Positions 1-61,908 of a stretch of DNA of 64,000 nt are shown piece after piece. Source of the DNA: Candidatus Auribacterota bacterium (GTDB lineage Bacteria; Auribacterota; Tritonobacteria; UBA1439); contig JAPLCX010000108.1 of assembly GCA_026392035.1 (NCBI GenBank), forward strand, positions 4,634 through 68,633, given 5' to 3'. Numbering within the stretch: the first letter of the stretch is position 1; every line of letters starts with the position of its first letter. The notes below the pieces were generated by a model. That model saw nothing but the letters and a program-made list of their open reading frames with translations. It was not told where the DNA came from and did not search any database. Made by a program: the position numbers and the translations under genes.

Positions 1-1
1 G

Positions 2-631
2 CCGCTGCGTCCCACAGAACCAGGGCCGGAACCCCCGCCTCCGCCACCGGATCTCTCAGGCTACACAAGTGTGATACCAGACCCGCTCAAAACTATCCGC
101 GAGACGCCTGTAGGCGCTCTTGGGATGAAGATTGACCGGAAGCTGTTTGAACGTTTTGAAGAAACCGTAAAGGCCGATCCGGTAGCCCGGGAGAGCTATG
201 AGCGAGGCGATATTAAAGAAGCGGAGGCCTATGTCGTAGCGAATCTGTTCGACAAACCGGAATGGTTCTTCAGCCTTGAAAAATTACGCAAATCAGTGCA
301 TCTGGATCGGCGGATTACTCTACGGGAAATTCTGGCCAAGGTATTCGGCGAGATTGACCGATTCAAAACCAAGGATGAACTCCTGGAGGAGGAACTGTCG
401 AAATTCGTTTCCATCCACAAGCCGGATGCGACACGCATGCCGGTAATACGGCAATTTTTCAAGGCATACCTGACCGATGGCGGTGTCCGGGGCATTGTGG
501 ATTCCCGCGAATTTCCCAGGCTGGCTGATAATCCCAAAGTATCGCTGGCTGACTTGCGATTCCTTGGGGAATGGCGGGATCGTATTCCTGAATATGTGAA
601 GGACTACGTATCTCTGAACCAGTTTGTGTGA
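2..631 (+). CDS. hsdR: Type I restriction enzyme R subunit (HsdR), C-terminal fragment; gene is open to the 5' edge of the window
   Basis: Reading frame is open from nt 2 (no in-frame stop before the listed M at 71). Pro-rich linker then a helical C-terminal domain typical of HsdR C-termini. Sits immediately upstream of an hsdM/hsdS gene. Assignment rests on family resemblance and context only. Confidence 0.5.
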   Translation, partial: PLRPTEPGPEPPPPPPDLSGYTSVIPDPLKTIRETPVGALGMKIDRKLFERFEETVKADPVARESYERGDIKEAEAYVVANLFDKPEWFFSLEKLRKSVHLDRRITLREILAKVFGEIDRFKTKDELLEEELSKFVSIHKPDATRMPVIRQFFKAYLTDGGVRGIVDSREFPRLADNPKVSLADLRFLGEWRDRIPEYVKDYVSLNQFV

Positions 632-743
632 TGTAAATGGATGTGCGGGAGTTTTAAAACTTGAGGTCACAGATTGTGACCTCAAGCGCAGGTCTCATGA
701 GGATGTCGCAATTTGTGATATCCTCTGACATTAGGTCATCGTT

Positions 744-1316
744 ATGAATAGCAATCGAGTGTCCATACCAGCGGAGCGAATCGAGGGATTGATTCTTCTG
801 ATACGGGGGCAGAGGGTTATGTTGGATTCCGATCTGGCAAAGTTGTATGAAGTCACGACATCAAACCTGAACAAGGCGGTCAGACGTAATCCCGAGCGTT
901 TTCCGTCCGATTTCATGTTCCAGCTTAATGCATCCGAGTACCGGTCTTTAAGATTCCAATTTGGAATCTTAAAGCGCGGCCAGCACTCAAAATACCTGCC
1001 ATTGGCCTTCACCGAGCAGGGCGTTGCGATGCTCTCCAGCGTATTGAACAGTCCTCGCGCTATACAGGTAAATGTAGCCATTATGCGCGCTTTTGTACGC
1101 TTGCGCCAATTACTTGCCACACATGCAGGCCTGGCCCGAAAGCTTGAGGAGATGGAGCGCCAGTACGACCGGCAATTTCAGGTTGTGTTTGAAGCTATCC
1201 GTGAACTAATGAAGCCTCCGGAACCAAAAAGACGGCAGATCGGGTTCCATGTCCGGGAACGGCGTGCCTCATATTCCGCTCGACGGAAAAAGGTTGTGAA
1301 ACATGCTCGACGCTGA
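744..1316 (+). CDS. ORF6N (KilA-N-like) DNA-binding domain protein
   Basis: N-terminus [42 protein letters not shown] matches the ORF6N domain signature. Basic C-terminal tail. Inserted between hsdR and hsdM. Confidence 0.75.
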
Positions 1317-1428
1317 AACCAAAGCGAGAATAGATTCCGCCCGCGACATCCTGGTGGGCGCTATATTACCCTCTCCCTCTGGAGGGAGAGGGCGGGGTGA
1401 GGGGGAATATTTTGCTCTTCGTGACTGA
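1303..1428 (+). pseudogene. Duplicated 5' fragment of hsdM ([19 protein letters not shown]...) followed by an unrelated 22-codon tail and a stop
   Basis: nt 1303-1360 are ~88% identical to the true hsdM start at 1452-1510 (MLDTDTKARIDSARDILVGK). The ORF6N stop codon lies inside this copy. Confidence 0.5.
1360..1395. other. GC-rich inverted repeat/hairpin (CCCTCTCCCTC-TGGA-GGGAGAGGG) in the spacer between the hsdM 5' duplicate and the real hsdM
   Basis: Perfect 9-11-bp arms seen directly in the sequence. No T-tract follows, so it is not a canonical terminator. Confidence 0.4.
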
Positions 1429-1451
1429 TTCTGCATGAAAGGAAGCAATGT

Positions 1452-3929
1452 ATGCTTGATACTGATACAAAAGCGAGAATAGACTCCGCCCGCGATATCC
1501 TGGTGGGCAAGGTGCCTGATCCAAAATCCCAGGTGGAGCAAATCACCATCGCCCTGATCTACAAGTTCATGGACGACATGGACCGCCAGTCGGAGGAACT
1601 GGGCGGCAAAGCGGCTTTCTTCTCCGGTGAGTTCAAGAGATACGCTTGGAATCACCTACTCGATAATCGCCACAGCGGCCATGAGCGGTTACTTCTCTAC
1701 GCCGAAGGCATAGAGAAGATGAATACCAATAAGAACATCCCGCAGCTTTTCCGCGATATCTTCAAGGGCGTCTTTCTTCCCTACCGCGATCCAGAAACGC
1801 TGAATCTTTTTCTTAAAGAGATTAATGGATTCACGTATGATCACAGCGAAAGGCTTGGGGATGCGTTTGAATATCTCCTCTCTGTTCTCGGAAGCCAGGG
1901 AGAAGCCGGACAGTTCCGAACACCGAGGCACATTATTGACTTCATTGTCTCAATCGTCAGCCCTCAGAAAAATGAAACTATCCTCGATCCCGCATGTGGC
2001 ACCGCGGGATTCCTGATCTCATCTTACAAGCATATCCTAATCCAGAACACCAAGGATCGCCCCGGAGATAAACTTACGGCCGACGAACGCGGCAGGTTAA
2101 TGACAAATTTCTGCGGCTATGACATATCGCCCGATATGGTGCGATTGTCCCGCGTAAATATGTACCTGCATAGTTTTGCAAATCCGCGCATCCACGAATA
2201 TGACACATTGACAAGTGAGGAGCGATGGGACGAGCGCTATGACGTGATCCTGGCTAATCCGCCTTTTATGTCACCCAAAGGTGGTATTCGGCCCCATAAT
2301 CGCTTCAGCATCAAAGCTACCCGAAGCGAGGTGCTGTTTGTTGACTATATCGCTGAGCATCTCAACGTCAATGGCCGCGCCGGCATCATCGTGCCGGAGG
2401 GAATTATTTTTCAGTCGCAGAATGCTTATAAGAAACTGCGGAAGATGCTCGTCGAGAATTATCTCTGGTGTGTGGTTTCGCTCCCCGGCGGTTGTTTTAA
2501 TCCTTATTCCGGAGTGAAGACGAGCATCCTCCTCCTCGACAAATCGCTGGCAAAGCGGATAGATGAAATCATGTTTGTGAAGATAGGGGATGATGGGTTT
2601 GATCTCGGCGCGCAGAGGAGGCCGATTGAGGAGAATGATTTGCCCGAGGCACTGGCGCTAATTAAGAAATGGAAGGAAGGTAACAAAGAAGTTCAAGAGG
2701 CGCAAAAGAAATTGGCTCATGCCGTCAGCTGCAAACAGCTCCTTGAATCCGGCGATTGCCACCTCTCCGGCGATCGCTACCGGGATAAGGGTATTCGAGT
2801 CAGCGGCAAGTGGCCGATGGTGCCCATTGGAAAACTGTGTGAGAACATTAAAAATGGCCTCACTCCAAAAGAACATAGAGGACGTGTTGTCTATATTGGG
2901 CTAGAAAATATTGTATCAAACTCCGGTGAGCTTGTCGGAGAATTTGAATCCGAAATTAAAGCAATAAAGAGCACAAAACTGCGTTTTCAGAAAAATAATA
3001 TCTTATATGGCAAACTGCGTCCCAATCTTAATAAGGTTTGGCTTGCGGACCGTGATGGAATTTGCTCCACCGATATAATGGTTTTGCGCTTCAATTCGAT
3101 CCTTGCAAACCCTTCTTTATTTGTACATATCCTTAGGCAAAAGATCTTCAATAACAAAGTGCTCCAGGGACTTGTTGGAGCACAATTGCCAAGAATCAAA
3201 TTCTCATACTTTGTATCTATAGATGTCCCCCTTCCCCCTCTGGAAGTACAGGAGCAGATTGTCGCGGAACTGAACGGCTATCGGAAGATCATCGAAGGCG
3301 CAAAGCAAATCATCGCCAATTACAAACCGACCATTAAGATTAATTCGGCCTGGCCGATAGGTGTTTTGAAAGAGGTGGCAGAGATTAATCGATTAACAAT
3401 TGACCCGGGTGAGAAATATGGCAGCCGAGAATTTTGCTATGTCGACATTTCCTCTGTAGAAAACGGTACCGGGAGAGTTATGTTCGGTAATCGCATAAAA
3501 GGTAGTGAAGCTCCCAGTAGGGCACGCCGTGTCGTCGCCAAAGGAGACGTTTTGCTTTCAACGGTTAGGCCAAACTTGAAAGCATTCGCCTGCCTCGATG
3601 AGGTCCCGGATGATGCTGTTGCTTCAACCGGGTTTGCTGTTTTGACACCTCGTGCAAACAGAGTATTAAGTCGGTTCCTCTGGCATCTACTTTTCGATGA
3701 TTGCGTCCTGGCGCAAATGCTAAGCAGGATGGGGCGAGGTGCATATCCGAGCATAAATCAATCAGATGTTGAATCCCTGAAAGTCCCCCTTCCGCCCCTC
3801 GACATCCAACACCAGATCGTTGACACGCTCGAATCGGAGCGGGCGATAGTAGACGCGAACCGGAAGCTGGTCGAAATGTTCGAGCAAAAGATTCAGGCCA
3901 AGCTCGCAGAAATATGGGGTGAAGAATAG
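1452..3929 (+). CDS. hsdM: Type I R-M methyltransferase-specificity fusion: N6-adenine MTase (HsdM) domain fused in frame to a two-TRD HsdS
   Basis: HsdM motifs: LDPACGTAGFLI (motif I) and LANPPFMSPKGG (NPPF, motif IV). The HsdS part begins near aa 440 (from ~nt 2770) with TRD1. The central conserved repeat is LPPLEVQEQIVAELNGYRKIIEGAKQII. TRD2 and the C-terminal conserved repeat LPPLDIQHQIVDTLESERAIVDANRKLVEMFEQKIQAKLAEIWGE follow. One uninterrupted 825-codon ORF. RBS AAGGAAG upstream. Confidence 0.85.
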   Translation: MLDTDTKARIDSARDILVGKVPDPKSQVEQITIALIYKFMDDMDRQSEELGGKAAFFSGEFKRYAWNHLLDNRHSGHERLLLYAEGIEKMNTNKNIPQLFRDIFKGVFLPYRDPETLNLFLKEINGFTYDHSERLGDAFEYLLSVLGSQGEAGQFRTPRHIIDFIVSIVSPQKNETILDPACGTAGFLISSYKHILIQNTKDRPGDKLTADERGRLMTNFCGYDISPDMVRLSRVNMYLHSFANPRIHEYDTLTSEERWDERYDVILANPPFMSPKGGIRPHNRFSIKATRSEVLFVDYIAEHLNVNGRAGIIVPEGIIFQSQNAYKKLRKMLVENYLWCVVSLPGGCFNPYSGVKTSILLLDKSLAKRIDEIMFVKIGDDGFDLGAQRRPIEENDLPEALALIKKWKEGNKEVQEAQKKLAHAVSCKQLLESGDCHLSGDRYRDKGIRVSGKWPMVPIGKLCENIKNGLTPKEHRGRVVYIGLENIVSNSGELVGEFESEIKAIKSTKLRFQKNNILYGKLRPNLNKVWLADRDGICSTDIMVLRFNSILANPSLFVHILRQKIFNNKVLQGLVGAQLPRIKFSYFVSIDVPLPPLEVQEQIVAELNGYRKIIEGAKQIIANYKPTIKINSAWPIGVLKEVAEINRLTIDPGEKYGSREFCYVDISSVENGTGRVMFGNRIKGSEAPSRARRVVAKGDVLLSTVRPNLKAFACLDEVPDDAVASTGFAVLTPRANRVLSRFLWHLLFDDCVLAQMLSRMGRGAYPSINQSDVESLKVPLPPLDIQHQIVDTLESERAIVDANRKLVEMFEQKIQAKLAEIWGEE

Positions 3930-4094
3930 CAACAGAGCCAAGAGGTGTAATCATTATTATGATGATGATCATTGGACTTAATGTGCTTCAGCCTTCTATG
4001 TGGGGTCTATGAATATAGCGGTTGCCCAGTCCTTAAACAATAGGTGTTATGAAGTTAGAGGCCCCGGCTAGGCAGGATAAAAGAGAATAAGAAT

Positions 4095-5336
4095 ATGTTT
4101 GGACAAAAGTATTTTGAACAACGTATTGGCGACATTTTCCATTTATCTCCAATCCCGTACTTGTGTGGCGATGGTGAGTTATCCAATTCACATGAATCAT
4201 GCAAAGTGCGGTGGGAACTGAATGTTCCTATCACCGGGGAACCACTTCTTGTCATTAGTACTGGCAAAGTGATCACGCCTGATAGTTGGATTACAGCAGA
4301 CCGACAGTTTGTTGAGTGGATATTGACAGGAGCCACAGATGATAAATTATTCTTGATCGCAGCGGAAGCAGTCATATTAAATAGAATGAAGCCTTCATCT
4401 GATGAGCAGCCGAATTATTATTTTAGCCAGTTTCGGCAGATGGATATTTTGCGAAGTTCATCAAAAGCAGTTACTAAATTAGAGGCAATAACGCTTAATT
4501 TTACATTTGAAGGTACAGATAAATTCCAAATAGCAGTCGCTGGAAGGCAAATCCACTTCCGACAAAGCAAGCAGTATAGCGAGTTAAGGGAGCTTATAAA
4601 GATCAAACGGATTGATCGCGCCTTAATTTCTGAGATCCATGTTCCACTACTTGAAGGAGAGACGCTAGAAATGGGGATAGAGATCCTATTCACGCTAGGA
4701 TGGTTAATTTCTTTTCTCACCTTAAACCGAGTTTCAACTCCATTGCTTCGCCTGCTAGACAATGAAACGTTGTGTGGTTGGAGAATTATGGAGCTCCGTT
4801 CTTATCCTTATCATCCTAGTGAAATCATTGATAATAAAATAATCCCAGAAGGCATCAAGAAATGCCTCGAATCAGTATATGATAATTTTGTGAGGTTTAG
4901 TAAATCGCTAGAGCTGGAACGACTCGTAGATATGATTTTGACAGCGTATCAGGAGGGGCTTGTGGAATTCAAAGTGGCTGGGCTTATTTTAGGATATGAA
5001 CTATTTTGTACGTCTTTTCTGAAATATAAAGGCAGACCGCTGACTCTAGAATCTAACATCGAGCAGAAGCTAAATGGTGTAAATAGTTATCTTCGCTTTA
5101 TACCCGCGCATTTGCTTAACGAAAGACTGCGGAAAGATATTCGCAACCCGCTTTTTCACGAAGGATTGATTATTGGGATTGATACAAGGAGTTTATTTCG
5201 ATGGTATAAAGAATATTTGGATCTATTGATAGAAATGCTTTTATTTATTTTAGGCTATAAAGGGAATTTTATTTCACGCGTAGATTATAAGCCCATTCCG
5301 GTCCCGATATCCGCAGGCAAATCCAATATCCCTTGA
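4095..5336 (+). CDS. Hypothetical protein (413 aa); first gene of the AT-rich two-gene island; no recognisable catalytic or NTP-binding motif
   Basis: Long ORF in a markedly AT-richer stretch than the flanks. Codirectional with the SIR2-like gene 70 nt downstream. No Walker A, TIR-like or HEPN-like motif seen. Confidence 0.6.
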   Translation: MFGQKYFEQRIGDIFHLSPIPYLCGDGELSNSHESCKVRWELNVPITGEPLLVISTGKVITPDSWITADRQFVEWILTGATDDKLFLIAAEAVILNRMKPSSDEQPNYYFSQFRQMDILRSSSKAVTKLEAITLNFTFEGTDKFQIAVAGRQIHFRQSKQYSELRELIKIKRIDRALISEIHVPLLEGETLEMGIEILFTLGWLISFLTLNRVSTPLLRLLDNETLCGWRIMELRSYPYHPSEIIDNKIIPEGIKKCLESVYDNFVRFSKSLELERLVDMILTAYQEGLVEFKVAGLILGYELFCTSFLKYKGRPLTLESNIEQKLNGVNSYLRFIPAHLLNERLRKDIRNPLFHEGLIIGIDTRSLFRWYKEYLDLLIEMLLFILGYKGNFISRVDYKPIPVPISAGKSNIP

Positions 5337-5405
5337 TGACAGAAGTGGAACACAGGCTATGATGAATTCATTGAGCGTATATATGTCAGGCAATAATCGC
5401 TTTGC

Positions 5406-6605
5406 ATGAATATGAAAATCATACTTTTTCTGGGATCAGGAGTATCATTTCCGACGGGATTGCCATGTGCGAAAAAGGTAACAGATTCTATTCTCAGCGA
5501 TGAATGGCATAGTTGTAGTGATGGGATATTTCGACCGGGGCCAGAACCGAATCAGTATTTTCGAGACGATAATCTCGCGCCTTGTCTTCAGCAGTTTCTA
5601 AAATTGCTTAAGGAATATGCTGACGCTTATTATTCAAATAAGCATAGGCCAGAGTCGAATTACGAAGATTTATATTACCTCGCGCAGCAGATAGAGGATG
5701 AGGAGTTGGGAGAGATATTTAATCCAGCCATACGGCCTTTTGTCGAAGAGATAAAAAACAAGACTGTAGCATTATGCAGTCGGGAACAGTTTGGTATCAA
5801 AGACTTAACTTTTAGAGAGCTAGGCTGGAAAGCTTGCATATTTATTGAATATGCTTTATGGCAACTTTTGGGTACTAACAATAATCCTGAAGGGATGAAT
5901 CTCATTAAAGAGCTTGCGCTATCGCCAGAAGTTGAAGCTTTAGATATTCTCACTTTGAATCATGACATTCTAGTAGAAAGATTCCTTAGTCGTAACGGAA
6001 TTCAATATGCTGATGGTTTTGGGCTACCTGATGGAGATGTTAGGTTTTTTAAGCCATCGACATATGATGAGGATATCAAGGTTCGCCTTTTCAAACTTCA
6101 TGGCTCAATCAACTGGTTTTGGCTTAGACGCCGTGAGGGTGATATTGCCATTGCTGAATATGGCATCCCAATAAATAATGACATTTGGCACTTTAAAGAT
6201 GCAAAAGGTGAGAACATTGATAACTTGATGGGCGGGCCCAGAATTTTGATAGGGACTTATAACAAGATACCGGATTATGGTCAGGGCATATTTTCAGGAG
6301 TACACCTCAAATTTCAGTCTATTCTCCCAGAACGTGATTTGATGGTTATGTCCGGCTATGGCTGGAATGATAGGGGGATATCTCTCCGCCTTCGAGAATG
6401 GCTTAATTCTTCAATGGATAAACGCCTTTATCTATTGCATCAAAATCCTGAATCAGAAATTCGCGATAAATCAAAAAGTGGAATGTGGCACTGGTATGAG
6501 CCATGGGTAAAAGAGGGAAGGCTTGTGCCAATTAAGCAATGGTTGTGTGATATTAAATTACCTGAACTAATCGGAATAATTAAAACCCATCGAAGTGTGC
6601 ATTAA
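5406..6605 (+). CDS. SIR2-like protein (SIR2_2 / DHS-like NAD-binding family), standalone, 399 aa
   Basis: Rossmann start ILFLGSGVSFPTGLP. Catalytic-pair region LTLNHDILVE (Asn) ... FKLHGSINWF (His), arranged as in ThsA/DSR-type SIR2 domains. Later LMVMSGYGWNDRGI motif. The whole protein is SIR2_2-like. Confidence 0.75.
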   Translation: MNMKIILFLGSGVSFPTGLPCAKKVTDSILSDEWHSCSDGIFRPGPEPNQYFRDDNLAPCLQQFLKLLKEYADAYYSNKHRPESNYEDLYYLAQQIEDEELGEIFNPAIRPFVEEIKNKTVALCSREQFGIKDLTFRELGWKACIFIEYALWQLLGTNNNPEGMNLIKELALSPEVEALDILTLNHDILVERFLSRNGIQYADGFGLPDGDVRFFKPSTYDEDIKVRLFKLHGSINWFWLRRREGDIAIAEYGIPINNDIWHFKDAKGENIDNLMGGPRILIGTYNKIPDYGQGIFSGVHLKFQSILPERDLMVMSGYGWNDRGISLRLREWLNSSMDKRLYLLHQNPESEIRDKSKSGMWHWYEPWVKEGRLVPIKQWLCDIKLPELIGIIKTHRSVH

Positions 6606-6663
6606 CTCCGTTCAACGACTATAAAGATCAAAGAGGCAGCCCCTCTTAAACAGCGTTTAGAAA

Positions 6664-6697
6664 CTTTTGGAGCGCGCAAAACCAAGAGCCTGCGGAG
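6664..6697. repeat. Repeat family R1, copy a (CTTTTGGAGCGCGCAAAACCAAGAGCCTGCGGAG)
   Basis: Near-identical copy at 7183-7217. Seen directly. Confidence 0.6.
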
Positions 6698-6821
6698 CCG
6701 AGGTCAGAGGTTTCTTTTCCTGCACCCGTGGAGCCCGTGGGGGAAATCGAAGGGGATCACTAAAAACAGCGGGAATTTTTTCTCTCATTCTAATCCCAAT
6801 TTTAGCATTGCTGCCCAACCC

Positions 6822-6875
6822 ATCCGCCTTGACTCACGCAAATGTTATTGACCTCATCCATGAACGCTCAACCCC
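6822..6875. repeat. Repeat family R2, copy a (ATCCGCCTTGACTCACGCAAATGTTATTGACCTCATCCATGAACGCTCAACCCC); contains two -35-like hexamers TTGACT/TTGACC
   Basis: Second copy 105 bp downstream (6927-6980). Partial third copy 6981-7006. Confidence 0.6.
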
Positions 6876-6926
6876 GCCGCCCTGCTGCCCATTCCCTCCC
6901 GCATCTATAATTGGAATGCTAAAAAG

Positions 6927-6980
6927 ATCCGCCTTGACTTACGCGAATGTAATTGACCTCACCCCTGAGCGCTCAACCCA
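6927..6980. repeat. Repeat family R2, copy b
   Basis: ATCCGCCTTGACTTACGCGAATGTAATTGACCTCACCCCTGAGCGCTCAACCCA, ~85% identical to copy a. Confidence 0.6.
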
Positions 6981-7182
6981 TCCTCCTTGACTCGCATGAA
7001 AGTTATCGGCATACGCATTTAAGCGTCCACGACACCTCAATAAAGCTTCCCCATCATAAGCGGAGTGGAAGCGGAGAGGGTACGGAGAGGGTGTCTCCCT
7101 GGGTGAGAAAAGAACCCCCCGCACCATCTCACGGTGATGCGGGGGCTTTCCAGAGCCACCGGGGATTATGCCTTTTAATGAG

Positions 7183-12462: not shown

Positions 12463-12690
12463 CCCCAGGGGCAAGCCGGGGATGACACCGGACGAGTGGA
12501 GCGATCTTCTGTACTCGGAGGTGACCCACAAGGAAATTGCAAAAATGGGAGAGGAGTATCAAAAGAGCCTGAATGACGAGAGGCAAAGGCAAGAGAAGAT
12601 ACGCGTGGCACCCCGAAGAGCATCGAAAGGCACGGATTCGGCCAAGAAATTGGGCGGTGAGGGGAGAATACCGGCCTCCCTGAGAACTCG
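12463..12690. repeat. ~225-bp dispersed repeat, copy 1; contains a conserved Lys/Glu-rich small ORF (MTPDEWSDLLYSEVTHKEIAKMGEEYQKSL...)
   Basis: ~90% identical to 14529-14752. The same small ORF and the same antisense ORF start (MWVTSEYRRSLHSSGVIPGLP) are present in both copies. Confidence 0.7.
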
Positions 12691-12819
12691 CGTTATAGGG
12701 GAAATGGCGAGGCCGGTTTTTGAGCGGGCCAGCTAGTCCTGACGGAAGGGGAAGACCTGAATGACGCCTTGTGGGATGTCATGAAAGAAGGAAGATAGTT
12801 GGAAGCAGGGAGATAAAAA

Positions 12820-13023
12820 ATGGCTACTGGAAACCTGAAGGTGTCATGTAGGCGCTGTAATGCTTGCGGAAAAGTGACCAAGTGTGAAAGGAATGGCATG
12901 ATCTGGGGGTGCGGTGATCTGATCATGGTCTTTATGACAGTGGGCCTCTGGTGCATCGCTCGTTTTATCGTTAATGAAGTAATAAATCCCTGGCGCTGTT
13001 CTGAATGCGGGAAGCGAGTCTGA
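12820..13023 (+). CDS. Small zinc-ribbon membrane protein (CxxC ... TM helix ... CxxC), 67 aa
   Basis: CRRCNACGK ... hydrophobic LIMVFMTVGLWCIARFIV ... CSECGK. AGGGAG RBS 6-8 nt upstream of the ATG. Sits directly upstream of the Sel1 gene. Confidence 0.4.
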   Translation: MATGNLKVSCRRCNACGKVTKCERNGMIWGCGDLIMVFMTVGLWCIARFIVNEVINPWRCSECGKRV

Positions 13024-13037
13024 AACATAGGCGATAT

Positions 13038-14345
13038 ATGACCCGAAAAAATATATCCATCTTTTGCGCCGTTTTTATTTTTGCGATATTCATGCTGCAC
13101 TTTTTACCATTCTCCAAAGATAAATCCTTGAATAATGCCGGACAAAAGATTGTCTCCACCACTAGAAGTCTTTTAGATTCAAATGAAATGCAGGTTGGTA
13201 AAGCTGCTTATGACCGCAAAGATTACGTAGCAGCCTTCCAAAACTTCTCCAAGGCCGCAAAAAAAGGTGATGCAGAAGCACAATATAAACTCGGGTTGAT
13301 GTATGACGAAGGCCACGGTGTGCCGAAAAATTATGTCGAGGGCGCCAAATGGTACCGCAAAGCCGCAGAACAGGGCTTTGCACCGGCGCAGTCTAATCTC
13401 GGGTTTATGTATGTCAACGGCCAAGGCGTGTCGCAGGATTATAGTGCAACGTATGTCCATGGCCAAAGCGTGTCTCCAGATTATGTTGAAGCAGTCAAAT
13501 GGTACCGCAAAGCCGCAGAACAGGGCTTTGCAGAGGCGCAAAATAATCTCGGGGCAATGTATTACAAAGGCCAAGGCGTGCCGCAGGATTACACAGTGGC
13601 CGCCGACTGGTACCGCGCAGCCGCAGAGCAGGGCAATGCAATTGCACAGTTGAATCTAGGGTCAATGTATTACCACCACTTGGGTGTGCCAAAAGATTAC
13701 ACAGAGGCATTCAAATGGTACCACAAAGCCGCGGAACAGGGTGTTGCACAGGCGAAGGCTATGCTCGGGTCAATGTATTACACAGGCCAAGGCGTGCCGC
13801 AGGATTACACAGAGGCCGCCAAATGGTACCACAAAGCCGCAGAACAGGGTGTTGCACAGGCGAAGGCTATGCTCGGGGCAATGTATTACACAGGCCAAGG
13901 CGTGCCGCAGGATTACACAGAGGCCGCCAAATGGTACCGCAAGGCAGCGGAACAGGGCGTTGCAGAGGCACAGGCTTGGGCCAGACGTAGAAAATGGACG
14001 ACAAATGATCTAGCAATTTTATGTGTGGGAAAAACGAAACAAGAAATTCGTGGAGCATTTGGAGAACCGGATAATACCCGATGGGCAACCATGCGGCGGC
14101 TGGATTTATCAAAATATGATCCTGAGTATCATGATCAAAGTAAAATGGCATTCAGATGGATTTATAAAAATATGGATATCAACAATCTGGATCTCGGGAC
14201 AAAAGAAAGTGTTCTCTGTATCTGGTTTTTCTATAGAGAGGGATACATTGCTACCAGTATAAAGACTATGAATTCATCAACGTATAGGGATTTGCTGCAT
14301 GTAGAATTTGAAAATGGTTATGGTTCCGGTCCCAGCATCTTCTGA
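13038..14345 (+). CDS. Sel1-repeat (TPR-like) protein with N-terminal signal/anchor
   Basis: At least eight tandem Sel1 units of the form [35 protein letters not shown]. Start placed at the internal Met before the hydrophobic segment. Confidence 0.8.
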
Positions 14346-14374: not shown

Positions 14375-14525
14375 ATGATCCTGGCCTTGATCAACAACAA
14401 GGGGGGGACGGGGAAGACCACGTCCGCCGTTTCGCTGGCCGCCGCGCTGGCCATGAAGGGAAACAAGGCGCTGCTGGTCGATCTGGACAGTTAGGCAAGC
14501 GCCAGCCTGTCCATGGGGATCGAGC
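14375..14525 (+). pseudogene. parA/soj-like ATPase gene remnant ([39 protein letters not shown]-stop-ASASLSMGIE), truncated by repeat copy 2
   Basis: Deviant Walker A KGGTGKTT and DLD(P)Q motif. In-frame TAG after codon 39. Homology ends where the 225-bp repeat begins. Confidence 0.55.
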
Positions 14526-14528
14526 GGG

Positions 14529-14752
14529 CGCGGGGGCAAGCCGGGGATGACACCGGACGAGTGGAGCGATCTTCTGTATTCGGAGGTGACCCACAAGGAA
14601 CTTGCGAAAATGGGAGAGGAGTATCAAAAGAGCCTGAAGGACGAGAAGCAAAAGCAAGGGAAGAGACGTGCGGCACCCCCAAGAGCACCGAAAGGCACGG
14701 ATTCGGCCAAGAAATTGGGCGGTGAGGGGAGGATACCGACCTCCAAGAGATC
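14529..14752. repeat. ~225-bp dispersed repeat, copy 2
   Basis: See copy 1. This copy interrupts the parA-like reading frame. Confidence 0.7.
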
Positions 14753-14826
14753 GCGCCCTAGAGTTTAGGGGTGGCTTATTGACGAGGGAGGGGAAGCAAT
14801 CTCACCTCGCATTAGCTGCGGAGCTA

Positions 14827-15474
14827 ATGAAAAGGGAGGGAACTAAATTGGATGCGCTGCAGAAACATTTTCATGATGAGGCTGCATCATTTAAAAAGGC
14901 GGGCTTCGCTTCAATTCAATGGTTGGCCTGTGGCGATGAGCGCACGTGTTCTACATGTAAGGCGATGGATAAAAAGGTATTACCGATAGAAGATATGCGC
15001 CTTGTTATTCAAAAACATCACTGCGAAAACAAAGAAGATGGATGCCGTTGCACGTTTGTACTCCCAGATGAAGAATCCAGCCCAATAGATAATGCACAAT
15101 CTAAAGGTGATAAATCTGTTCCCGACTTAAACAAAGCCCCCGTGATGGATTTTATGTCTGCCATCGAAGAGGCGAAGAAAAAAGTGGCCGATCCAAAATG
15201 GTGGAGAGAACAAGGCTGTAAATGGGGCGATCATGCAATGGAAAGCTTCGGGAAGCTAATGGATCCAAAATATTCTTTATCGAATGAGGAAGCAAAGAGG
15301 ATCATCATTGAATTCCCCGCTTTCCATTCCATAATAATGGAATCCAATATCGAAATTAACGATGAGACAGTGCCTAAGGTTATCCAATTGATAAGGGAAC
15401 AGCTTGACCCGCAGAAATGGGCAAATCACGCTCCGGGGAGTCTCCGGGACGCTGGGCAAGAGGGTAAAACATGA
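14827..15474 (+). CDS. Phage Mu F / SPP1 gp7-like head-morphogenesis domain protein (standalone)
   Basis: [31 protein letters not shown] matches the MuF-domain hallmark (D-E-R-T-C-x-x-C-x-x-x-D-G-K-V). Start set at the first Met after the repeat. The longer listed ORF begins inside repeat copy 2. Confidence 0.55.
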
Positions 15475-16517
15475 CTTATACGCCGAAGTACACTATAACA
15501 GACGCCACGGCGGTAGCATTGACCGCTATCGAGCGGGCGAGGGGCTTCCTGGAGGCCGCGAAGCTCTCCGAAGACTGGGTAGCCGGGATGCAGCGGCGGG
15601 CGCTTGTCCTGGAGGCCCATCATACTACCCATATAGAAGGGACGCACCTCACCCTGGAGCAGTCGGAGCGGATACTCGCCGGTAAATCCGTCCCGGAGGC
15701 AAACCCCGATGATGCCCGCGAGCTTCTGAACTATCGGGATGCCTTCGAGCTCGTGGCGGAATACCTCGGGAGTGGGGAGCCCGTCACCGAGGCGCTCATC
15801 CGGCAGGTACACAAGCGCCTTGTGATCGGCGTGCGCGGCGACTCGGGAGCTCCAGGGGAGTACCGGAGGGTGCAGAACTACGTCGTGAACAGCCGCACCA
15901 AAGAGGTTGTGTACACTCCTCCACCTCCCCAGGATGTGCCGCCCATGATGAAAGAGCTTATCGCGTGGCTCGGGGAGGCCAAGCAGATGAATCCCGTCCT
16001 TGAGGCCGGTGCCGCTCAGTTTCAGCTCGTCCATATCCACCCATTTGTGGACGGGAACGGCAGGAGTGCCCGGCTCCTCTCGACGCTCTGCCTTTACCGG
16101 AAAGGGTACGACTTCAAGCGCCTCTTTACCATCAGCGAATACTATGACCGGGACCGGGCGGCCTACTACCGGGCAATCCAGAGCGTCCGGGCCAGCGGCA
16201 TGGACCTCACCAAGTGGCTGGAGTATTTCGCGGAGGGACTCGCCGTGCAGATGCGGGAGGTACAGGAGAAGGGGGAGCGCGTCATTCGGGCGGACGTGCT
16301 TGCCCGAAAGCACCGCCTCTCCGACCGGCAACGGGCCGCCCTCGGGCACGCCCTGGAGCACGGCTTACTTGCCTTACAAGACTACGCCGCACTATGCCCG
16401 AAGGCTAACCGCAGGACACTACAGAGAGACCTCAAGGCTATGGTGGACAAAGGCCTTCTCATTCAGGAGGGCTCAGGCCCGGCAGCGCATTACCGCATGG
16501 GGAAGGTTAAGAAGTGA
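15471..16517 (+). CDS. Fic-family protein (AMPylase-type), class II with N-terminal inhibitory motif
   Basis: Active site [16 protein letters not shown] (HxFx[D/E]GNGRxxR). N-terminal TTHIEG fits the (S/T)xxxE(G/N) auto-inhibition helix. Start overlaps the upstream stop (ATGA). Confidence 0.85.
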
Positions 16518-16562
16518 AATCACGACATAATCACGACACGAATCACGACAGGATCGCGACAT
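16518..16562. repeat. Four tandem ~11-bp repeats (AATCACGACAN) immediately after the fic stop codon
   Basis: aatcacgacat aatcacgacac gaatcacgacag gatcgcgacatgg, read directly. Confidence 0.6.
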
Positions 16563-57620: not shown

Positions 57621-57740
57621 ATGGCAAGACCACTGAGGATTGAATATCCGAGGCATGGCACCATGTCACAAGCCGCGGGAACGAGCGGTGGGAGATATCC
57701 CGGGACGACAAGGACAGGAAGCGGAGCCGCGGTGACGAAT
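57621..57740 (+). pseudogene. Decayed N-terminal fragment of a RAYT/IS200-like HUH transposase gene (MARPLRIEYP, then frameshift, then GAWHHVTSRGNER)
   Basis: MARPLRIEYPGAxYHVTSRGNER is the characteristic N-terminus of this transposase family. Here a 1-nt frameshift and a stop follow after ~38 codons. Preceded by AAAAATCAGGGTCAAACCT at 57561-57580. Confidence 0.5.
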
Positions 57741-57834
57741 AATCACATGCGTCTTCAGAAGCAGATGTTAAAAGACCGAAGATTGGCGAAACGGGTGAAA
57801 CAGATTCACGACAAACTTGTCAGTGTACAGTAGA
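57723..57834. repeat. ~110-bp repeat, left copy; inverted partner at 61797-61908
   Basis: GGAGCCGCGGTGACGAATAATCACATGCGTCTTCAGAAGCAGATGTTAAAAGACCGAAGATTGGCGAAACGGGTGAAACAGATT... is ~90% identical to the reverse complement of 61797-61908. Confidence 0.7.
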
Positions 57835-58729: not shown

Positions 58730-59677
58730 ATGATACAAGCCACAAGTCTAGAGAATATAGTTACAACACATCGCCTTATCCAAGGTGATGCCAGAGAAAT
58801 GTCATATATCCCGAACGAATCAATCCATCTTGTGATTACATCACCACCTTACTGGACATTAAAGAGATACAATGAAAATCCAAGACAGTTAGGGCATGTT
58901 TCCGGATACGAACAATTTCTTAATGAGCTACAAAAGGTATGGACCGAGGTTTATAGAGTGCTTGTTCCCGGAAGCAGGCTAGTTTGCGTGATCGGGGACG
59001 TATGCCTTTCCAGAAAGAAGTTTGGGAGGCATGTAGTTGTTCCTCTGCATGCTGATGTTTGCGTGATGTGCAGGAAGATTGGCTTTGACAATCTTAATCC
59101 TATCATCTGGCATAAAATTTCGAACGCTGCTTTTGAAGCGAACGACGGATCAAAATTTTTAGGCAAACCATATGAGCCTAATGCGATTATTAAAAACGAT
59201 ATCGAGTTTATTCTGATGCAAAGGAAGCCGGGGGGCTATAGGAAGCCCACGGAAGAGCAACGCCGGCTAAGCAAAATAGGCAAGAACGAATTCAACGAAT
59301 GGTTCCGTCAGTTCTGCACCTTAACGGGAGCTTCTACAAAAAATCATCCAGCACCTTTCCCTTTAGAGTTAGCTAATCGTTTGGTGCGGATGTTTTCATT
59401 TTGGGGGGATACGGTCCTAGATCCTTTCTGTGGGAGCGGTACTACAATGCTGGCTGCCATGAGGTGTCACCGCAATAGCATAGGGGTTGAAATAGATAGA
59501 GAGTATTGCCGTATGGCCGCGCAGCGATTGATTAAGGAAAATCAGGATTTTTTCTCTAAAACCCGTTTGGAGTTCAAAAAGCAGATTAATAGTAAAGACC
59601 AGGGCTTGATTCTCCATGAGGATAAAGCTTTATATGTGGCGCACAAGAAAAAACAAAAAATGAAAGCCGCATCATAA
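58730..59677 (+). CDS. Beta-class amino-DNA methyltransferase (motif IV SPPY before motif I DPFCGSGTT); likely N4-cytosine (or N6-adenine)
   Basis: VITSPPYW (motif IV) at aa ~38 and VLDPFCGSGTT (motif I) at aa ~263. This is the ParB/beta-group order typical of type II N4C/N6A MTases. Confidence 0.85.
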   Translation: MIQATSLENIVTTHRLIQGDAREMSYIPNESIHLVITSPPYWTLKRYNENPRQLGHVSGYEQFLNELQKVWTEVYRVLVPGSRLVCVIGDVCLSRKKFGRHVVVPLHADVCVMCRKIGFDNLNPIIWHKISNAAFEANDGSKFLGKPYEPNAIIKNDIEFILMQRKPGGYRKPTEEQRRLSKIGKNEFNEWFRQFCTLTGASTKNHPAPFPLELANRLVRMFSFWGDTVLDPFCGSGTTMLAAMRCHRNSIGVEIDREYCRMAAQRLIKENQDFFSKTRLEFKKQINSKDQGLILHEDKALYVAHKKKQKMKAAS

Positions 59678-61747: not shown

Positions 61748-61796
61748 GATCATGTGTCGGGACGCGAGAGGATACTCAAAACATCAGGGTCATCTC

Positions 61797-61908
61797 TACA
61801 CTAACAAGTTAGTTGTAAATCTGTTTCACCCGTTTCGCCAATTTTCGGTCTTTCAACATCTGCTTCTGAAGACGCATATGATTATTCGTCACCGGAGCTC
61901 CGCCAATC
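61797..61908. repeat. ~110-bp repeat, right copy (inverted relative to 57723-57834); itself flanked by a 14-bp inverted repeat ACATCAGGGTCATC / GATGACCCTGATGT (61781-61794 / 61970-61983)
   Basis: Read directly on both strands. Confidence 0.7.

Follow-up and report, generated by a model that had tools for sequence, protein, structure and literature searches.

Several class II Fic enzymes containing a domain of the winged helix-turn-helix type (wHTH) have been described. Those of the SoFic type show toxicity and take part in defence against phages, and an E. coli example (EcSofic) has a small downstream antitoxin, AS1 (PMC12249575). SoFic of Shewanella oneidensis AMPylates EF-Tu in a dimer-dependent manner and binds DNA upstream of the gene encoding it (bioRxiv 10.64898/2026.07.09.737422), CccR of Yersinia pseudotuberculosis represses its own promoter via an inverted repeat (PMC9755527), and the activity of CbFic2 of Coxiella burnetii is switched by DNA-induced dimerisation, the specific DNA motif not being known (PMC10628234). 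A gene of this kind was analysed in a 64-kb stretch of DNA from a Candidatus Auribacterota bacterium (64,000 nucleotides of contig JAPLCX010000108.1, referred to as the window), where it follows a gene containing a fragment of a MuF-type phage head protein (gene 1, or 'mini-MuF') and is itself followed by a short tandem repeat array. Strong comparative evidence from related loci, all of it at the level of sequence, indicated that such arrays are probably the cognate binding sites of the Fic protein's own winged helix. The Fic gene and its array comprise the following features.

15471..16517, + strand, gene for a class II Fic AMPylase (348 aa) whose C-terminus is a winged-helix domain
15624..15641, + strand, inhibitory motif TTHIEG, fitting (S/T)xxxE(G/N), Fic aa 52-57, inside the Fic_N match
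16038..16073, + strand, catalytic Fic motif of the HxFx(D/E)GNGRxxR type, Fic aa 190-201, intact
16323..16505, + strand, Fic C-terminal winged-helix region, recognition helix N313-RRTLQRDL, wing EGSGPAAHY
16518..16561, + strand, tandem repeats right behind the Fic stop codon, presumed to serve the Fic wHTH as operator

The Fic protein matched Pfam Fic (E 9e-20) and Fic_N, and its start agrees with the N-terminus of its homologues, M-(A/T/S)-(F/Y)-x-P-(K/R)-(Y/F)-T-I-T. The inhibitory motif was kept in 120 of 120 close homologues and the catalytic motif in 119 of them; the class II assignment of the initial annotation, made from the letters of the window alone and resting on an intact active site and an N-terminal inhibitory motif, was thus borne out. 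Solved relatives were FICD, SoFic, 7xux and other Fido proteins. The 7xux alignment runs through the winged-helix region, matches to wHTH families of Pfam were weak there, and R314, R315, L317, Q318 and R319 were invariant in the recognition helix. The PADLOC model PDLC03963 for the SoFic anti-phage system (Millman 2022) matched with an E-value of 3.3e-63 (aa 40-334 against model positions 52-342 of 361). As judged from its sequence, the window protein is a class II Fic that resembles SoFic and has a winged helix at its C-terminus, and it is not a SoFic orthologue, its identity to solved members being under 30%. It shares with SoFic, EcSofic, CccR and CbFic2 the class II architecture with a wHTH, the match to the SoFic model and relatives in defence islands; CccR, SoFic and CbFic2 are documented to bind DNA through the tail, and the same is predicted for the window protein.

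Relatives of the Fic protein at E ≤ 1e-30 numbered 5855, the best 120 of which are 67-100% identical to it. Thousands of relatives at 60-86% identity were found across Chlamydiota, Elusimicrobiota, Planctomycetota, Acidobacteriota, Nitrospirota, Gammaproteobacteria and other groups, and cultured plasmids and phages held no close relatives, only matches under 30% identity. Fic loci were sampled from one-genome-per-species contigs (53 loci, many phyla) and from viral contigs (4 loci), giving 57 loci. Ten upstream neighbours were tested against Pfam; six had a match, to HsdS (two loci), HsdM, a YhcG PDDEXK nuclease, a JetD-like protein and AbiEi, and the remaining four had none. The tested neighbours of the family with a match are thus mostly defence genes, and the module usually lies in defence islands. 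Close relatives of the Fic gene hold a GC content of ~0.60 regardless of the composition of their flanks, and the module is widespread, horizontally mobile and autonomous.

The array of the window (16518-16561) reads AATCACGACA-t-AATCACGACA-cg-AATCACGACA-gg-ATCGCGACA; its units recur every 11-12 nt, and its three exact AATCACGACA copies were found nowhere else in the 64 kb. Analogous arrays at related Fic loci have 3-6 units with the same period of 11-12 nt, begin at or overlap the stop codon, and use a unit that is specific to the locus. Arrays were detected as 8-mers with at most 1 mismatch at a spacing of 9-14, with shuffled sequences as a control, and 39 of 46 loci had at least three tandem units at their Fic stop codon (shuffles: mean about 1.1, maximum 3). 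These 39 loci span phyla, and arrays were seen at Fic 3' ends among L002-L047, L060 and L062. The commonest unit was AACTTGCGACA, others being AGCTGTGACA, ATCGCGACA, ACTTGCGCCA and CTGTGCCA; the unit at the Fic gene of the phage contig L062 was TTTTTACGACA. Four of the seven exceptions (Gammaproteobacteria, Coxiellaceae) had a CTTGCGACA array upstream instead, within about 110 nt of the Fic start, with the penultimate unit 17 nt before a TATGAT box, in the manner of a -35 element. In a Methanosarcinales metagenome-assembled genome (MAG), the locus of an archaeal Fic relative at 35% identity (L048) had a 3-unit GTTGACGCAAAG array after the stop codon (after 6035) and a different 3-unit array, TATATGCCAAC, upstream of the Fic start (upstream of 5001), so the array habit reaches well past the subfamily at 60-86% identity. 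No conserved open reading frame (ORF) followed the arrays, small AS1-like ORFs included, and the only similarities found there were translated repeat units. In its cis element the window locus therefore differs from the described systems, having tandem direct repeats at the stop codon where CccR has an inverted repeat in the promoter and SoFic a bound stretch of ~100 bp upstream of the start; it also differs in that a conserved small downstream ORF of the AS1 kind is absent and the Fic gene is coupled to an upstream mini-MuF gene. A limited literature search found no description of 3' repeat arrays of Fic genes, and such arrays may be published.

Unit sequence and protein sequence were found to covary, in counts that come from related sequences and do not represent independent events. 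All arrays whose unit ends in GCCA were paired with a proline just before the invariant RR(T/S)LQR(D/E)L helix (5 of 5, plus L044); these loci were L004, L029 and L037 on a GCG background, L021 and L046 on a GTG background, and L044, so that the link between proline and GCCA arose in at least two different backgrounds. With GACA-type arrays, proline was present at that position in 0 of about 39 loci, which had N, T, S or H instead. The 5' half of the unit tracked the wing of the Fic protein after KGLL: the unit AACTTGCGACA went with the wing EGATN(R/Q)LxY, the unit AGCTGTGACA with G(S/T)GPTDPTxxY, and the unit ATC(G/A)CGACA with GSGPAAHY or GA(G/A)R..(S/A)Y (window, L002, L035, L038, L039). 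Because the unit sequence covaries with residues of the wHTH, each array is probably a cognate operator of the protein encoded next to it.

Gene 1, which precedes the Fic gene on the same strand, has these features.

14827..15474, + strand, gene 1 ('mini-MuF'), 215 aa when started at ATG 14827, 208 aa when started at TTG 14848 (public MAG record)
14878..15066, + strand, gene 1 N-terminal domain, zinc-knuckle sub-domain (about aa 18-80) common to the C-terminal half of MuF / SPP1 gp7
15142..15459, + strand, gene 1 C-terminal helical domain, orphan (aa 106-211), holding the conserved [ST]xxxES[NG]IxIN
15471..15474, + strand, ATGA stop/start overlap of gene 1 and the Fic gene, with a GAGGG Shine-Dalgarno 6 nt upstream, within the 3' end of gene 1

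The two ORFs share the ATGA of this 4-nt overlap, and the translationally coupled pair described in the initial annotation was recovered (14827/14848-15474 and 15471-16517), an overlap alone being weak evidence. The TTG start at 14848 has a GGAGGG Shine-Dalgarno seven nucleotides before it, and a public MAG (Candidatus Aureabacteria) holds a protein identical to the gene 1 product (P0001, NCBI). The zinc-knuckle sub-domain carries W32, D37, C41, C44, C66, C73, R74 and C75, of which D37, C41, C44, C73, R74 and C75 were invariant across relatives of gene 1, a canonical MuF included. The D-E-R-T-C-x-x-C ... C-R-C motif of the MuF C-terminus was present, its first part at aa 36-51. Pfam Phage_Mu_F (PF04233) scored 26.8 bits against a cut-off of 29.6, over profile positions 59-111 of 112, and TIGR01641 scored 29.3 bits against 39.65, over positions 49-106 of 109. 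Since both matches are partial and below the curated cut-offs, only the Cys-rich C-terminal sub-domain of MuF is present in gene 1; the label 'MuF-like' given initially stands for this motif and does not extend to the whole domain, of which half is covered. PHROG minor head families matched at 4e-9 over the same ~70-100 residues. An AlphaFold2 model (mean pLDDT 77) consisted of an N-terminal domain at aa 5-80 (pLDDT about 90), a disordered linker at aa 84-105 and a helical C-terminal domain at aa 106-211. In BFVD, ~70 residues of the N-terminal domain aligned with MuF and minor-capsid proteins at a probability of about 1 and an E-value of only 0.014-1, and searches of solved structures gave no sequence match and matched no solved MuF structure. 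Gene 1 is thus a ~75-aa MuF-type zinc-knuckle sub-domain joined to an orphan helical domain.

With MuF / SPP1 gp7, gene 1 shares the W..(A/S)GD(E)RTCxxC...GK...CRC zinc knuckle, and the predicted fold of the sub-domain may match as well, at weak E-values. It differs from MuF minor head proteins in lacking the N-terminal half, portal and terminase neighbours, and a surrounding prophage, whereas the genuine MuF gene of the viral contig L062 directly follows the portal gene. Truncation of its 5' end by the nearby 231-nt repeat described below was considered and rejected, as its relative P0003 likewise lacks the N-terminal extension of a further relative, P0002, and no remnant was detected. In the C-terminal domain, [ST]xxxES[NG]IxIN (aa 168-178, nt 15328-15360) was kept in 3 of 3 family members; the stretch SIIMES at aa 168 recalls the Fic inhibitory motif (S/T)xxxE(G/N) and does not fit it. 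Base composition switches exactly at the gene junction, from a GC content at third codon positions (GC3) of 0.44 in gene 1 (GC 0.44) to 0.76 in the Fic gene. Because their compositions differ, the two genes have different histories, and gene 1 is a rare AT-rich foreign gene.

Relatives of gene 1 were sought by a word-indexed search, a full HMMER scan of 1.84 billion representatives, a profile search, and DNA patterns run against metagenome and viral contigs. The two-domain family was found to consist of three members only, in about 15 billion proteins. The window protein had identical copies, encoded on two short Logan contigs from this organism. P0002, 69% identical to gene 1, lies on a 1.9-kb ENA contig (ERZ1426824) and is followed, with an identical 4-nt overlap, by a gene bearing Fic_N. 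P0003, 45% identical, also has a 4-nt overlap with the next gene, whose first 60 residues are not Fic-like. Two of the three members therefore precede Fic and one precedes an unrelated gene. Both domains are conserved in the three lineages (69% and 45% identity), with insertions and deletions confined to the linker. About a dozen small stand-alone proteins (P0004-P0015, 76-164 aa) share the zinc-knuckle motif alone: like gene 1 they have the GF..v.W.saGD..tC..C...gk...CRC module of ~60-70 aa without the rest of MuF, and unlike gene 1 they have no C-terminal helical domain; identity over the motif was 26-41%, and none was seen adjoining Fic. One of them, P0009, is located in a Mu-like prophage between early genes and terminase. 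On a JGI contig (Ga0378408_0005947, L057), positions 4001-4495 encode a 164-aa stand-alone protein with an N-terminal CxxC...CxxC ribbon and a MuF-type zinc knuckle; it lies inside a Mu-like prophage (MuA transposase, Gp27, terminase), before terminase, which is not the usual MuF position.

Conserved adjacency of gene 1 and Fic did not emerge from the survey. None of the 57 other Fic-family loci had a relative of gene 1 within about 5-8 kb, the third family member is coupled to the non-Fic gene, and a canonical MuF was found ~2 kb from Fic in L062 only. About a quarter of the related loci have an unrelated upstream gene whose stop codon adjoins or overlaps the start of Fic, and because tight docking behind unrelated genes is common, the ATGA overlap is a habit of the Fic module and not the signature of a partner. 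The pairing of gene 1 with Fic is kept in no more than a tiny lineage, and gene 1 is probably an incidental, rare neighbour. The only true MuF found near a member of this Fic family was that of L062 (IMGVR_UViG_3300042890_006720, 1-6996), where a 59%-identical Fic precedes a portal gene by 0.5 kb and the portal gene is followed by the genuine MuF (PF04233, 101.7 bits) and by genes for DUF2213, a cement protein and the major capsid protein, a gene order that differs from that of the window.

The region directly upstream of gene 1 contains a gene stump and a direct repeat.

14375-14494, parA (ParA/MinD N-terminal) stump, Walker A motif KGGTGKT, in-frame TAG
12468-12698 and 14533-14763, 231-nt direct repeat, two copies, 91% identical

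The repeat copies and parA stump noted initially are thus present, the stump reading into the second copy (copy B) of the repeat. The repeat is purine-rich, its copies flank a Sel1-repeat gene (13005-14345, AT-rich), and it had no Rfam match. A coding function for it was unsupported, as differences between the copies are spread evenly across codon positions, and the repeat is probably non-coding. A scan of 11.5-17.5 kb for RNA families and regulatory signals returned nothing meaningful. Phage structural genes (portal, terminase, capsid) were absent among the large ORFs of the window, in keeping with the earlier placement of the pair outside any prophage. A low-GC cluster at 1452-6605 comprises a fused N6-methyltransferase/specificity (MTase-S) protein (1452-3929), a 413-aa ORF (4095-5336) and a SIR2_2-domain protein (5406-6605, GC3 0.35), and is likely a defence island, 9-13 kb upstream of Fic. 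Further downstream, a 110-nt inverted repeat (57721-57830 / 61794-61903, 91% complementary) surrounds a ~4-kb segment that includes an N6/N4 DNA methylase (58730-59677) and may be a mobile element.

The reading preferred here, held with slightly better than even confidence, is that the active unit is the self-contained Fic module, composed of the enzyme and its stop-codon array, and that gene 1 travels along as a passenger or accessory, being neither obligatory to Fic nor a vehicle for its delivery. By analogy with SoFic and CbFic2, the Fic protein would be an auto-inhibited AMPylase acting on a core cellular or translation-type target such as EF-Tu, and would be restrained by Glu56 in its inhibitory helix together with DNA- and dimer-dependent switching. 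The winged helices of a dimeric Fic would bind the array and thereby either autoregulate transcription or set a dimer-dependent activity state, transcriptional autoregulation being clearly plausible where the array lies upstream. Gene 1 would be co-transcribed and translationally coupled, most likely as a passenger or a lineage-specific accessory. Several points weigh against this reading. The pair recurs in the 69%-identical relative with the same 4-nt overlap and a conserved C-terminal QEGKT, so the association is older than a very recent accident, and because both domains are undisrupted in three lineages gene 1 appears functional and could act on Fic. The NCBIfam SoFic equivalog NF046030 scored 68 bits on the Fic protein against a cut-off of 550, and with a score so far below the cut-off the function of SoFic is transferred by analogy only. 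Anti-phage activity, AMPylation target and DNA binding of this Fic subfamily are predictions, and the reading does not account for an operator placed at the 3' end of its own gene.

The points concerning gene 1 would be accommodated by a two-gene defence or toxin-antitoxin-like system, in which the mini-MuF regulates or senses for Fic, either recognising a phage head or portal part or inhibiting in trans until infection. This was considered rather unlikely. Translational coupling kept in two lineages at 69% identity, an intact and conserved two-domain gene 1, and residence of the Fic family in defence islands (the window has one restriction-modification and one SIR2-like gene 9-13 kb upstream) are all consistent with it, and there is a precedent in AS1, the 47-aa accessory antitoxin downstream of a SoFic-type enzyme (PMC12249575). 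As in the class I Fic toxin-antitoxin pair VbhT/VbhA, the upstream gene overlaps Fic, and the conserved [ST]xxxES[NG] of gene 1 superficially recalls an inhibitory motif; however, it fails (S/T)xxxE(G/N), the inhibitory helix lies inside the Fic protein itself (class II), and gene 1, at 215 aa, is unrelated to VbhA-like antitoxins. Moreover, thousands of near-identical Fic genes work without gene 1, which itself drew no PADLOC match, the gene coupled to P0003 shows no likeness to Fic in its first 60 aa, and composition assigns the two genes different histories. A family of three members gives no statistical support to a regulator, and regulation of Fic by gene 1 is possible, the positive evidence for it ending at co-transcription. 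Alternatively, gene 1 could be a decaying, functionless remnant of a mobile element whose other traces would be the AT-rich Sel1 gene, the parA stump and the 231-nt repeats, and it would overlap Fic by accident. The ParA pseudogene and repeat copies directly upstream, the foreign composition (GC3 0.44) and the extreme rarity of the family would suit such an origin, but the frame is intact behind a good Shine-Dalgarno, the AlphaFold2 model is confident, relatives at 69% and 45% identity keep both domains, with insertions and deletions in the linker only, and the junction with Fic was kept in a second lineage, which together make decay improbable.

The remaining explanation, a MuF polymorphic toxin split into two genes, with Fic loaded by the MuF-like protein into a phage or gene transfer agent-like capsid and so delivered to other cells, was proposed in the initial annotation and is very unlikely, being already largely refuted. 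Fusions of MuF to toxins exist (PMC3482391, PMC5576092), the MuF C-terminal sub-domain is present in gene 1, and L062 offers a single case in which portal and genuine MuF genes lie 0.5 kb and 2 kb, respectively, from a 59%-identical Fic. However, known MuF toxins are single polypeptides in prophages or remnants encoding terminase, portal and capsid, usually with a small immunity ORF next (PMC3482391, PMC5576092), whereas gene 1 is not fused to a toxin domain and is followed by a 348-aa Fic. It holds half a MuF domain, scoring below threshold without the N-terminal half, and portal, terminase and capsid genes were not found among the large ORFs of the window. The supposition that MuF is a documented carrier of Fic/Doc toxins was likewise not upheld by either survey: Zhang 2012 lists Tox-Doc with type V and type VII secretion systems (T5SS and T7SS) and not with MuF (PMC3482391), and the main text and six supplementary files of Jamet 2017 do not mention Fic, Doc or PF02661 (PMC5576092). 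The Fic protein also keeps its auto-inhibition and a predicted DNA-binding tail with an operator in cis, like its stand-alone cytoplasmic relatives, and these are traits of a resident regulator and not of cargo.

The gene 1-Fic pair itself is of modest interest, being a common SoFic-like Fic coupled to a very rare gene with a fragment of a phage head protein. The array is the more valuable lead, as a gene-attached, co-evolving candidate for the cognate DNA that bears on how DNA-binding Fic AMPylases are regulated. A bolder and tentative proposal, possible though on balance doubtful, is that the array is a cis-encoded DNA ligand of the winged helix with a readable code (proline or non-proline before RRTLQR specifying GCCA or GACA, and the wing specifying the 5' half of the unit), that binding controls a dimer-dependent switch between AMPylation and deAMPylation, and that in the few mini-MuF loci the upstream protein adds a second, phage-derived input. 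The code predicts specificity-swap mutations, and the array is usable as an annotation marker that delimits the mobile Fic module. The array-bearing subfamily spans many phyla, Archaea-encoded relatives included, and if the proposal is true, a very widespread family of defence-island Fic proteins would gain a DNA-gated mechanism.

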